From Chlamydiia bacterium (GTDB lineage: Bacteria; Chlamydiota; Chlamydiia; Chlamydiales; 2-12-FULL-49-11): a DNA stretch of 26,638 nt. The notes under the pieces are model-generated. The model was not told the DNA's origin. It did not search any database and saw only the letters and a program-made list of their open reading frames with translations. The translations under genes were made by a program, and so were the position numbers. Where the stretch lies: contig JBIKKN010000001.1 of assembly GCA_044360335.1 (NCBI GenBank), forward strand, positions 1-26,638, read 5' to 3'. This document shows, in pieces, positions 10,435 to 11,256 of this stretch. Each line of letters starts with the position of its first letter. Position 1 is the stretch's first letter.

Positions 10435-11256
10435 ATGGCAAAAATTCATAAAACAGCAATTGTCCATAAAGATGTTAAAATAGGGGAAAATGTTACTATT
10501 GGGCCCTACTGTATATTAGATTCTCCTAAAATAGTTTTAGAAGATGGAGTGCATTTAAAATCCTTTGTCTCAGTAGAGGGTAATGTTGTTATTGGCAAGG
10601 GAACAAAAATTGCCTCTTATGCATCCATTGGGGCGCCAACAACTAATTTAACATTTCGAGGAGAAGAAACCTTTGTTAGAATTGGAGAAAATTGCGATAT
10701 TAGAGAGTATGTTTCCATTAATTCTTCTTGTGGAGAAAAAACCAGTGTAAAAGTGGGAAAAAATTGTTTGCTTATGCCTTACTCCTTTGTGGCGCATAAC
10801 TGTCTTTTAGGCGATAATGTTATTTTGACAAATGGAGCAACTTTAGCAGGACATGTAAAAATTGGTGATTTTGCAATTTTGGGGGGACTTTGTGCTATTG
10901 CACAGCACTTAAGAGTTGGAGATCACGCAATTGTTGGTGGTGGATCAATGGTTGGTATGGATGTACCTCCATTTACTATGTGCTCAGGGTATCCTTGTAA
11001 AGCATATAGCTTAAATATCGTTGGGATGAAAAGACGGCAATTTCCTGCAGCTATACAAAGAAACCTAGCAAAAGCATTTCGACTTACTTATAAAATGGGA
11101 CTTAGGTGGAGTGACGCAAAAGAGCAAATTTTAGCAACTATTCCACAAAGTACATATATCGATAATTGGATAGAATTTTGCAGTAGCACAAAAAAAGGGC
11201 TTATTTTTTATAGAAAGGAAGTGGCAGAAGCAAGTGGGAATAAATGCTTATTATAA
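10435..11256 (+). CDS. lpxA: Acyl-ACP:UDP-N-acetylglucosamine O-acyltransferase (divergent active site)
   Basis: Hexapeptide left-handed beta-helix repeats, VAHNC, LAGHV, DVPPF and NIVGMKRR; located in lpxC-fabZ-lpxA. Confidence 0.93.
   Translation: MAKIHKTAIVHKDVKIGENVTIGPYCILDSPKIVLEDGVHLKSFVSVEGNVVIGKGTKIASYASIGAPTTNLTFRGEETFVRIGENCDIREYVSINSSCGEKTSVKVGKNCLLMPYSFVAHNCLLGDNVILTNGATLAGHVKIGDFAILGGLCAIAQHLRVGDHAIVGGGSMVGMDVPPFTMCSGYPCKAYSLNIVGMKRRQFPAAIQRNLAKAFRLTYKMGLRWSDAKEQILATIPQSTYIDNWIEFCSSTKKGLIFYRKEVAEASGNKCLL

Follow-up and report, generated by a model that had tools for sequence, protein, structure and literature searches.

The LpxA encoded in the window, the whole 26,638-nucleotide stretch of chlamydial DNA analysed here, keeps the catalytic and UDP-binding residues of its family. 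By alignment to E. coli LpxA, five of its substrate-contact residues are replaced, one of them near-universal and the others usually kept. We give roughly even chances to the reading that this would be an active LpxA that has lost its binding site for the 3-hydroxyl, and which would be fixed on non-hydroxylated acyl-ACP at the head of an ordinary Raetz pathway.

The lpxA gene (10435..11256, forward strand) encodes a protein of 273 aa (P0001) that matched NF003657 at 293.5 bits (cut-off 226), its residues 1-258 aligning with positions 3-260 of the 264 in the profile, and TIGR01852 at 275.1 bits (cut-off 231). Alignment to E. coli LpxA (the 1LXA/2QIA sequence; E 1.2e-50) covered residues 2-257 with two one-residue gaps. 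Upstream on the same strand lie lpxC (9033..9959), encoding a UDP-3-O-acyl-GlcNAc deacetylase of 308 aa with a TTG start (TIGR00325, 237 bits, cut-off 187), and fabZ (9961..10425), encoding a 3-hydroxyacyl-ACP dehydratase (NF000582, 134.7 bits, cut-off 113). Downstream, also on the forward strand, is fmt (11280..12227), encoding methionyl-tRNA formyltransferase (TIGR00460, 230.3 bits, cut-off 201.5). This lpxC-fabZ-lpxA-fmt run, with lpxC first, was found in identical order on one congener contig, and fmt is located downstream of lpxA in other chlamydiae as well. A single LpxA was detected in the window genome (G000; assembly 68.6% complete). No second LpxA paralogue was found in the nine genomes of its genus, g1 (G000-G008), where the other hexapeptide matches were LpxD and weak unrelated frames, and we therefore rejected the idea of a canonical second LpxA freeing the window copy. 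By profile, catalytic residues, UDP contacts and genomic context, the window protein is a member of the LpxA family. Since it is a single orthologue in a conserved locus, the loss of K76, H122 and H160 is no ground for excluding it. Homology to LpxA spans the whole sequence, making a left-handed β-helix with a C-terminal helical domain very likely. The AF2 model (pLDDT 77.4, below 50 at residues 155-158) had short strands followed by four C-terminal helices; when this model, too poor for judging pocket geometry, was used in Foldseek, all 18 PDB matches at E <= 0.001 were LpxA, at TM 0.33-0.46 and rmsd 9-13 Å.

Residue roles were taken from a description of the 2QIA structure and from mutagenesis summaries (excerpts of PMC6286764, PMC6408518, PMC4322802 and PMC6820557). 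According to the excerpt of PMC6286764, the acyl β-hydroxyl in 2QIA lies 2.8 Å from H122 and 3.0 Å from Q73 and touches an H99-bound water, the ring oxygen of the sugar is in contact with K76, and UDP is contacted by Q161 (α-phosphate), N198 and R204 with R205. These distances agree with the background given in the original prediction, by which Q73 and H122 contact the R-3-hydroxyl. K76, H122, H144 and H160 are called essential in E. coli LpxA in the excerpt of PMC4322802, and that of PMC6820557 has D74 proposed to participate in catalysis. The E. coli K-12 sequence (taken from L031) served as the reference for mapping, and positions below follow its numbering unless a window residue is named. 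H125 is the general base of LpxA and the amide of G143 forms the oxyanion hole; H191 is the chain-cap residue of the E. coli enzyme.

All mapped features lie on the forward strand. The contact loop for the sugar and the β-hydroxyl, Q73-D74-L75-K76, is rebuilt in the window as T70-N71-L72-T73 (10642..10653), with Q73 replaced by T70 (codon 10642-10644), D74 by N71 and K76 by T73, and with L75 unchanged. I119 to H122 corresponds to P115 to F118 (10777..10788), the β-hydroxyl-binding His being now Phe (F118, codon 10786-10788) with a Pro three residues upstream. At H160-Q161-F162 the window protein has A156-Q157-H158 (10900..10908), so that H160 is lost (A156, codon 10900-10902), Q161 is kept and F162 has become a basic residue (H158). 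G169 to M172 (10939..10950) corresponds to G173, the chain-length ruler, which is kept, through G176, which is now M (M172, codon 10948-10950), with C174 changed to G. Retained are the catalytic base H125 (H121, 10795..10797), the oxyanion amide of G143 and the 6-OH contact H144 (G139-H140, 10849..10854), and the uracil/UDP contacts N198, R204 and R205 (N194 to R200-R201, 11014..11037). N72T, H99N, I119P, D126N and H191P are further changes, absent from the original prediction. Among the four residues listed as essential in E. coli, K76, H122 and H160 are replaced (by T, F and A) and only H144 is kept. Every substitution named in the original prediction (Q73T, D74N, K76T, H122F, H160A, G176M) and every retention (H125, H144, Q161, G173, N198, R204/R205) was real, and the interval it gave, 10642-10950, begins precisely with the T70 codon and ends with that of M172.

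To place these changes, we compared a clade sample of 18 sequences, namely the nine genomes of g1, a genus of uncultured chlamydiae, and nine metagenomic proteins at 70-86% identity, with 102 other chlamydial LpxAs (including other genera of the window family) and 150 representatives of 50%-identity clusters. The counts were drawn from the best 120 and the best 150 of ~7,000 LpxA homologues. T73, N74, P119, F122 and A160 were fixed in 18/18 clade members. Neither T73 nor F122 occurred in any of the 102 other chlamydial LpxAs or in any of the 150 cluster representatives (best 150 of ~7,000). Q73 was kept in 102/102 and 140/150 of these sequences, respectively, and was never replaced by T; H122 was kept in 102/102 and 149/150, the sole exception being N. 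We rejected an assembly or contamination artefact, as the signature is present in 18 independent sequences from several sources. N74 was seen in a few, and A160 in one, of the 102 other chlamydial LpxAs, and P119 outside the clade was limited to Chlamydiaceae and 3/150 representatives. The representatives retained H125 in 150/150, G143 in 149/150, H160 in 123/150 and K76 in 106/150. Within the clade, position 76 drifts between T, A, S and N, and position 162 carries a basic residue (H, K or R) in 17/18 and W in one; within g1, H144 gives way to Y in G002 and G005 and to R in G007. The closest LpxAs of named groups among the matches listed came from Rhabdochlamydiaceae, Parachlamydiaceae and Simkaniaceae MAGs (47-51% identity).

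G176M, H191P, H99N and D126N are ordinary chlamydial states. Positions 99 and 126 are N in all chlamydiae, P191 is present in 90/150 representatives, and position 176 is M or R in most chlamydiae and R, G, K or M in 30, 29, 27 and 16 of the 150 representatives, making G176M uninformative. The original prediction named widespread substitutions as a refutation; T73 and F122 are confined to one clade, and only G176M is widespread. R or K at position 162 was found in 4/27 representatives lacking H160 and in 2/123 keeping it (Fisher p ~0.01, the sequences not being independent). With H counted too, the effect was gone (p 0.19), leaving it a suggestion only that the basic group moved from 160 to 162 in compensation.

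In the LpxA tree, the clade was monophyletic (support 100/100) on the longest inner chlamydial branch (0.70) and sister to genera in which loop 74-76 was already altered; genera g4 and g7 were intermediate, their change being confined to this loop. The ratio of stem to crown branch length was 1.21 for LpxA compared to 0.36-0.76 for LpxC, FabZ and LpxD. Among 80 LpxA columns conserved outside g1, 11 were replaced inside and eight of these were fixed to a single residue; the replaced columns numbered 3/74 in LpxC (none fixed), 3/54 in FabZ and 4/76 in LpxD (one fixed). LpxA was also the most conserved of the four proteins within g1, with a mean identity of 73.6% compared to 60.6% for LpxD, 57.1% for FabZ and 50.2% for LpxC. 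In the two congener pairs of lowest dS (0.62 and 1.14), lpxA had dN/dS values of 0.019 and 0.054, and the same genome pairs gave 0.16-0.17 for LpxC and 0.07-0.11 for FabZ. The lpxA gene is under strong purifying selection with no decay, and of the four proteins LpxA alone is conserved yet different in this way. Given intact frames in nine genomes and dN/dS of 0.02-0.05, we rejected a pseudogene.

We propose that the substrate cleft was remodelled along the stem leading to one chlamydial genus and then became frozen, giving an acyl-ACP:UDP-GlcNAc 3-O-acyltransferase that would start an otherwise ordinary Raetz pathway. The general base H125, the oxyanion hole at the G143 amide and UDP binding by Q161, N198, R204 and R205 would all be kept. 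The polar site for the R-3-hydroxyl appears to have been erased: Q73 is now T and H122 is F, and H99 had already given way to N throughout the chlamydiae, so that the acyl pocket would become hydrophobic at its start; A119P flanks the former hydroxyl site. The most likely consequence would be that only non-hydroxylated acyl-ACP is accepted, a donor preference in g1 that we infer purely from the lost contacts. A preference of the C. trachomatis type would then be hard-wired in g1, C. trachomatis itself still having Q73 and H122. The sugar-side changes (D74N, loss of K76, H160A) appear to have begun earlier, as loop 74-76 is altered in two sister genera, and probably mean that the GlcNAc/diphosphate site was re-packed, not that the acceptor is new; the new basic residue at 162 possibly helps this site. 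That H144 and position 76 vary within g1 speaks more for a loosened sugar site than for one with a new specificity. A search for LpxL-type secondary acyltransferases in 22 genomes of the window family gave none, so acyl 3-hydroxyls are not required there as attachment points. C. trachomatis uses myristoyl-ACP with both Q73 and H122 in place, so these two residues alone do not decide between hydroxylated and non-hydroxylated donors, and their complete conservation elsewhere among chlamydiae implies a further role, one that would be covered differently in g1. Since D74 was proposed to be catalytic and the residues deemed essential in E. coli include H122, H160 and K76, activity could be low. A non-hydroxylated 3-O-acyl chain is the norm in Chlamydia; the "novel lipid A" originally predicted was therefore overstated, and g1 may make a product of the type already known from chlamydiae.

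Compensated drift is the competing account that fares best, although we consider it somewhat unlikely. It holds that contacts were lost by chance in a fast-evolving, reduced-genome endosymbiont lineage and locked by epistasis, with the product and the donor preference, whichever that is, remaining as in chlamydial relatives. The fast evolution of the lineage leaves room for such drift without a change of specificity: g1 is fast in all four proteins, its distance to other families exceeding that of g2 by 7-12 identity points. In addition, K76 and H160 have been lost sporadically in other LpxA lineages, D74 and K76 are already missing in sister genera, and positions 76, 144 and 162 vary within g1. 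Drift accounts less well for H122F and Q73T, neither seen among the 252 other LpxAs, for replacements gathered in one cleft with eight fixed to a single residue where LpxC, FabZ and LpxD have 0-1, and for the constraint within g1 being strongest on LpxA among the four proteins. The change from His to Phe is also chemically directional, a polar side chain giving way to a hydrophobic one precisely where the hydroxyl is contacted.

It is improbable that the rebuilt cleft has acquired a new specificity that dispenses with H122, Q73, D74, K76 and H160 and involves a donor or acceptor unlike that of any characterised LpxA. If it had, the near-universal H122 would be dispensable for LpxA chemistry and, in a family with no detectable secondary acyltransferase, the lipid A would be of an undescribed type.

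We regard as quite improbable a changed acceptor or unusual donor, by which the 73-76 loop, H160A and the variable H144 would suit another UDP-sugar or acyl chain and yield a new type of lipid A. K76 (ring oxygen), D74, H160 and, in some members, H144 (6-OH) are all changed neighbours of the sugar and diphosphate, and g1 LpxC carries unfixed changes in its acyl-passage insert (insert II; E. coli 195, 210, 214) and at K262, both of which would suit this reading. Against it, L75, Q161, N198, R204 and R205 are retained, and the sugar-side positions vary within g1 with no fixed new pattern. LpxC keeps E78, H79, T191, F192, H238, K239, D242, D246 and H265 (E. coli numbering), LpxD keeps its catalytic residues and the UDP-contact residues F41 and Y47, and LpxB, LpxK and WaaA are ordinary. 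Co-variation of LpxC and LpxD as a signal of an altered intermediate was rejected, since the insert II changes are unfixed and LpxD has no concerted change. The original prediction had allowed for UDP-GlcNAc3N as acceptor; the GnnA/GnnB pathway supplies this sugar for GlcNAc3N-selective LpxA. No DegT/GnnB-type aminotransferase was found in the nine g1 genomes (PF01041), which gave weak partial matches to other aminotransferases (E 1e-4 to 3e-8) where other chlamydial families gave E values of 1e-70 to 1e-120, and no clear GnnA-type oxidoreductase was found in G000, G003 or G006 (PF01408, no matches). We rejected a GlcNAc3N acceptor on these grounds; the missing GnnB-type enzyme and the kept LpxC and LpxD catalytic residues make it unlikely.

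The remaining pathway was recovered as well, the original prediction having named its absence as a possible refutation: LpxC, LpxD, LpxB and WaaA were found in G000 and LpxK in 7/8 congeners. The least complete g1 genomes, G000 and G001 (69-78%), gave no LpxK. lpxA, lpxC, lpxD, lpxB and waaA were intact in every g1 genome except for lpxD of G008, which is in two pieces at contig ends. One sampled chlamydial genome, G035, is without the entire lipid A pathway. A dead or moonlighting LpxA in a lineage on its way to losing lipid A is very improbable: several of the residues described as essential in E. coli have been lost (excerpt of PMC4322802), LpxC is relaxed in g1 (dN/dS 0.16-0.33), LpxK went undetected in two genomes and loss does occur in the order, as in G035, but lpxA is the best conserved of the four genes at dN/dS 0.02-0.05, H125, G143, Q161, N198 and R204 are intact, the pathway genes persist across g1 and the LpxK-less genomes are the least complete ones.

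The g1 LpxA can be viewed as a natural, selection-tested enzyme in which both direct hydroxyl contacts have been swapped for a hydrophobic pair. It bears on the residues behind the preference of C. trachomatis LpxA for a non-hydroxylated chain, shown in 2001, and the question of donor choice is directly testable because canonical sister genera and intermediate forms exist. H122 and four other residues usually called essential appear replaceable in an LpxA that is still strongly constrained. This matters for the design of inhibitors that target the active site of LpxA, and for automated annotation built on "invariant" positions.

The window LpxA is 38% identical over residues 2-257 to E. coli LpxA (PDB 1LXA, 2QIA), which is specific for R-3-hydroxymyristoyl-ACP. 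The two share H125, G143, H144, Q161, G173, N198, R204 and R205. In contrast, the β-hydroxyl contacts Q73, H122 and the H99-bound water are all replaced in the window enzyme, as are the sugar/diphosphate neighbours D74, K76 and H160, with P for H191 and N for D126. The sister genera g2, g3 and g6 (e.g. L011-L014; 50-55% identity) have canonical LpxAs and the same operon and share N99, G174, M176 and P191, features common to the family, with the window LpxA but, unlike it, keep Q73, D74, K76, A119, H122 and H160. The LpxA of Leptospira interrogans (PDB 3HSQ/3I3A), UDP-GlcNAc3N-selective like the Mesorhizobium type, matched the window LpxA at E 4.3e-40; its acceptor selectivity differs from that of E. 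coli and needs GnnA/GnnB, whereas a GnnB-type aminotransferase was not found in the g1 genomes.

C. trachomatis LpxA is reportedly a myristoyl-ACP-selective UDP-GlcNAc acyltransferase (described by Sweet et al. 2001). The protein (CT531; P0292 = AAC68133.1) is 39% identical to the window LpxA and has an identical lpxC-fabZ-lpxA-fmt neighbourhood. Both have H125, G143, Q161, N198, R204, N126 and P119 and both are without H99. C. trachomatis keeps Q73, D74, K76, H122, H160 and F162 where the window enzyme has T, N, T, F, A and H, and it has an LpxL-type late acyltransferase where none was found in the window family. In the excerpt of PMC6479002, C. trachomatis LpxA prefers non-hydroxylated acyl-ACP over R-3-hydroxymyristoyl-ACP, and it is the sole characterised LpxA favouring a non-hydroxylated donor in the excerpts of PMC6479002 and PMC6408518. 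As originally noted, it takes this donor and yet reads PQDLK and AHIAH (P0292), the very motifs that are rebuilt in the window enzyme.

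The gene for LpxA (10435-11256, + strand; 273 aa, P0001), whose product carries the substitutions, lies in an lpxC-fabZ-lpxA-fmt run (9033-12227, + strand) in which the genes nearly abut and each product scores above its NCBIfam equivalog cut-off. This gene order was repeated on one congener contig. The window's MAG is 1.04 Mb, 68.6% complete and 0.15% contaminated, with ~32% G+C. A phmmer search of PDB sequences aligned P0001 with E. coli LpxA (E = 1.2e-50); the alignment spans residues 2-257 and has two gaps of one residue each. Residues are numbered after E. coli K-12 LpxA from the annotated genome (L031). 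The alignment confirmed all of the changes listed in the original prediction (Q73T, D74N, K76T, H122F, H160A and G176M) and all of its retained residues (H125, H144, Q161, G173, N198, R204 and R205), and the segment that it delimited (10642-10950) runs exactly from the codon for T70 to that for M172 in P0001's own numbering. P0001 additionally carries N72T, H99N, I119P, D126N, F162H, C174G and H191P. The AF2 model of this LpxA was poor.

A published description of the E. coli LpxA product complex 2QIA (PMC6286764) places the acyl β-hydroxyl 2.8 Å from H122, 3.0 Å from Q73 and 2.8 Å from a water bound by H99; these distances bear out the stated role of Q73 and H122 as hydroxyl contacts. In the same complex, the sugar ring oxygen is contacted by K76, the acetyl carbonyl by the L75 amide, the 6-OH by H144, the α-phosphate by Q161, and uracil by N198 and R205. 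Mutagenesis summaries assign substrate binding to H122, H144 and H160 (PMC6408518), and the residues listed as essential in E. coli LpxA include H122, H144, H160 and K76 (PMC4322802). A catalytic part has been proposed for the D74 equivalent in P. aeruginosa LpxA (PMC6820557).

We compared P0001 with its 120 closest proteins from a 5.8-billion-protein collection. Among these best 120, T73, N74, F122 and A160 were found in all 18 proteins at 70-100% identity and P119 in 17 of the 18, position 76 of this group being T, A, S or N. The remaining 102 LpxAs were all at most 54% identical to P0001 and keep Q73 (102/102), H122 (102/102), H160 (101/102), D74 (91%) and K76 (94%). By whole-genome comparison, the signature was present in all nine genomes of the window's genus; LpxA was canonical in three further genera of its family (g2, g3 and g6) and in eleven other chlamydial families, and that of genera g4 and g7 departs solely in loop 74-76. 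Among the chlamydial LpxAs of both comparisons, Q73T and H122F are confined to the window's genus and close metagenomic relatives. Within the genus, H144 is itself replaced, by Y in G002 and G005 (L006, L008) and by R in G007 (L009), the last LpxA also carrying W162 and R191.

An exhaustive phmmer search gave the best 150 representatives of 50%-identity clusters, of which 150 keep H125, 149 H122 (the exception being one N), 140 Q73 (never T), 131 D74, 123 H160 and 106 K76. The truly exceptional changes among these 150 and the best 120 homologues are therefore H122F and Q73T, both at direct hydroxyl contacts. Loss of K76 or H160 is sporadic in other LpxA lineages, and G176M, from the predicted set, carries no signal, nor do H191P, H99N and D126N, all four being common or chlamydia-wide. 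A few unrelated representatives off-pattern at the hydroxyl site were P0214 (K73, N122), P0202 (M73 with P119) and P0266 (P73, P119, V160).

The evidence shows that the window LpxA is the orthologue belonging to an intact pathway and maintained by selection, and that its substrate cleft has been rebuilt in a genus-specific manner. We infer that O-3 of UDP-GlcNAc is still the site of acylation and H125 still the base. Replacement of His by Phe and of Gln by Thr, in an enzyme that already has the chlamydial H99N, would leave the acyl hydroxyl unrecognised and restrict the donor to non-hydroxylated acyl-ACP, a reading of the sequences that we hold with moderate confidence. Compensated drift with specificity unchanged is a possible but rather doubtful explanation.

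The genus is deeply diverged and fast-evolving, but LpxA is the best-kept of the four proteins examined. Mean identities within the genus and within its sister genus g2 were 73.6% and 81.5% for LpxA, 60.6% and 73.8% for LpxD, 57.1% and 87.6% for FabZ, and 50.2% and 72.2% for LpxC. In the two genome pairs whose dS was lowest, dN/dS by the Nei-Gojobori method was 0.019 and 0.054 for LpxA, 0.17 and 0.16 for LpxC, and 0.067 and 0.108 for FabZ. Columns at least 90% conserved outside the genus but replaced within it numbered 11/80 in LpxA, eight of them fixed to one residue (64, 73, 97, 119, 122, 160, 212 and 258), 3/74 in LpxC (the three lie in the acyl-passage insert and none is fixed), 3/54 in FabZ and 4/76 in LpxD (one fixed). 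In a maximum-likelihood tree the LpxAs of the genus were monophyletic (100/100), with g4 as sister (94/61) followed by g7 (93/75), and their stem, at 0.70 changes per site, was the longest inner branch among chlamydiae. The stem/crown ratio in FastTree trees was 1.21 for LpxA versus 0.36-0.76 for the other three proteins. The long stem, low dN/dS and fixed columns together look like a burst of change on that stem and strong constraint afterwards. The first step appears to have been the change in loop 74-76, in the common ancestor of g7, g4 and the window's genus, with Q73T, H122F, H160A and A119P arising later, on the stem of the genus. The neighbouring lpxC (9033-9959) and its orthologues in the genus are unusually fast (50% mean identity, dN/dS 0.16-0.33), with unfixed changes at the otherwise conserved insert-II positions 195, 210 and 214 (E. 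coli) and at K262, and all catalytic residues kept.

A new acceptor or unusual donor is improbable. Positions 76, 144 and 162 differ among members of the genus, suggesting that the sugar site has loosened or been re-packed rather than gained a new specificity. The proposed unusual acceptor, in its GlcNAc3N form, did not hold up: a DegT/GnnB-type aminotransferase was not found in the genus, many other chlamydial families having strong matches, and GFO/IDH/MocA oxidoreductases were essentially absent, making a GlcNAc3N backbone unlikely.

That the protein is dead or moonlighting is highly improbable. The search for the other pathway genes found LpxC, LpxD, LpxB and WaaA in the window's genome, and LpxK in 7/8 congeners, missing solely from the two least complete assemblies. 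The zinc and catalytic residues of LpxC are all intact, as are H239, H276, F41, Y47 and G257 of LpxD, and no second LpxA was found in any genome of the genus. The LpxD Q236 equivalent (E. coli numbering; L032, G000:C180, 807-1871, and relatives), three residues before catalytic H239 and matching LpxA H122, is M in the window's genus and g2, I in G002 and G005, and Q in the other families tabulated.

A search of 22 genomes from the window's family, several 96-97% complete, detected no LpxL-type late acyltransferase (PF03279), and LpxJ (DUF374, PF04028) was not found either; PF03279 is present in 10/19 other families and in C. trachomatis. Any lipid A made by this family may lack secondary acyl chains. 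If so, acyl 3-hydroxyls would have no biosynthetic use there, and one reason for keeping a pocket that recognises the hydroxyl would fall away. In a genome of family f15 of the same order (G035; 0.8 Mb, 90% complete), six separate searches gave no match to LpxA, LpxB, LpxC, LpxD, LpxK, WaaA or LpxL, and this lineage may have no lipid A at all.

Chlamydiaceae genomes were found via the MOMP gene, their LpxAs extracted and names confirmed by exact look-up, G202 yielding C. trachomatis LpxA (AAC68133.1). In the assembly of a representative Chlamydia-genus genome, lpxA is split over two frames (L187, G299:C1, ~1504-2269; overlap near L187:1928-1998). As originally stated, AAC68133.1 has P-Q-D-L-K and A-H-I-A-H. 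It also keeps H144, H160, Q161 and F162, whereas the window LpxA has A160 and H162. C. abortus, C. gallinacea and Chlamydiifrater LpxAs agree with AAC68133.1. Non-hydroxylated acyl-ACP is strongly preferred by the C. trachomatis enzyme (PMC6479002), which has Q73 and H122 in place, so their loss is not required for that preference. Common to the LpxAs of Chlamydiaceae and the window's genus is P119, three residues before position 122; the rest of the sampled chlamydial LpxAs have A at this position (100/102), and just 3 of the 150 representatives have P.
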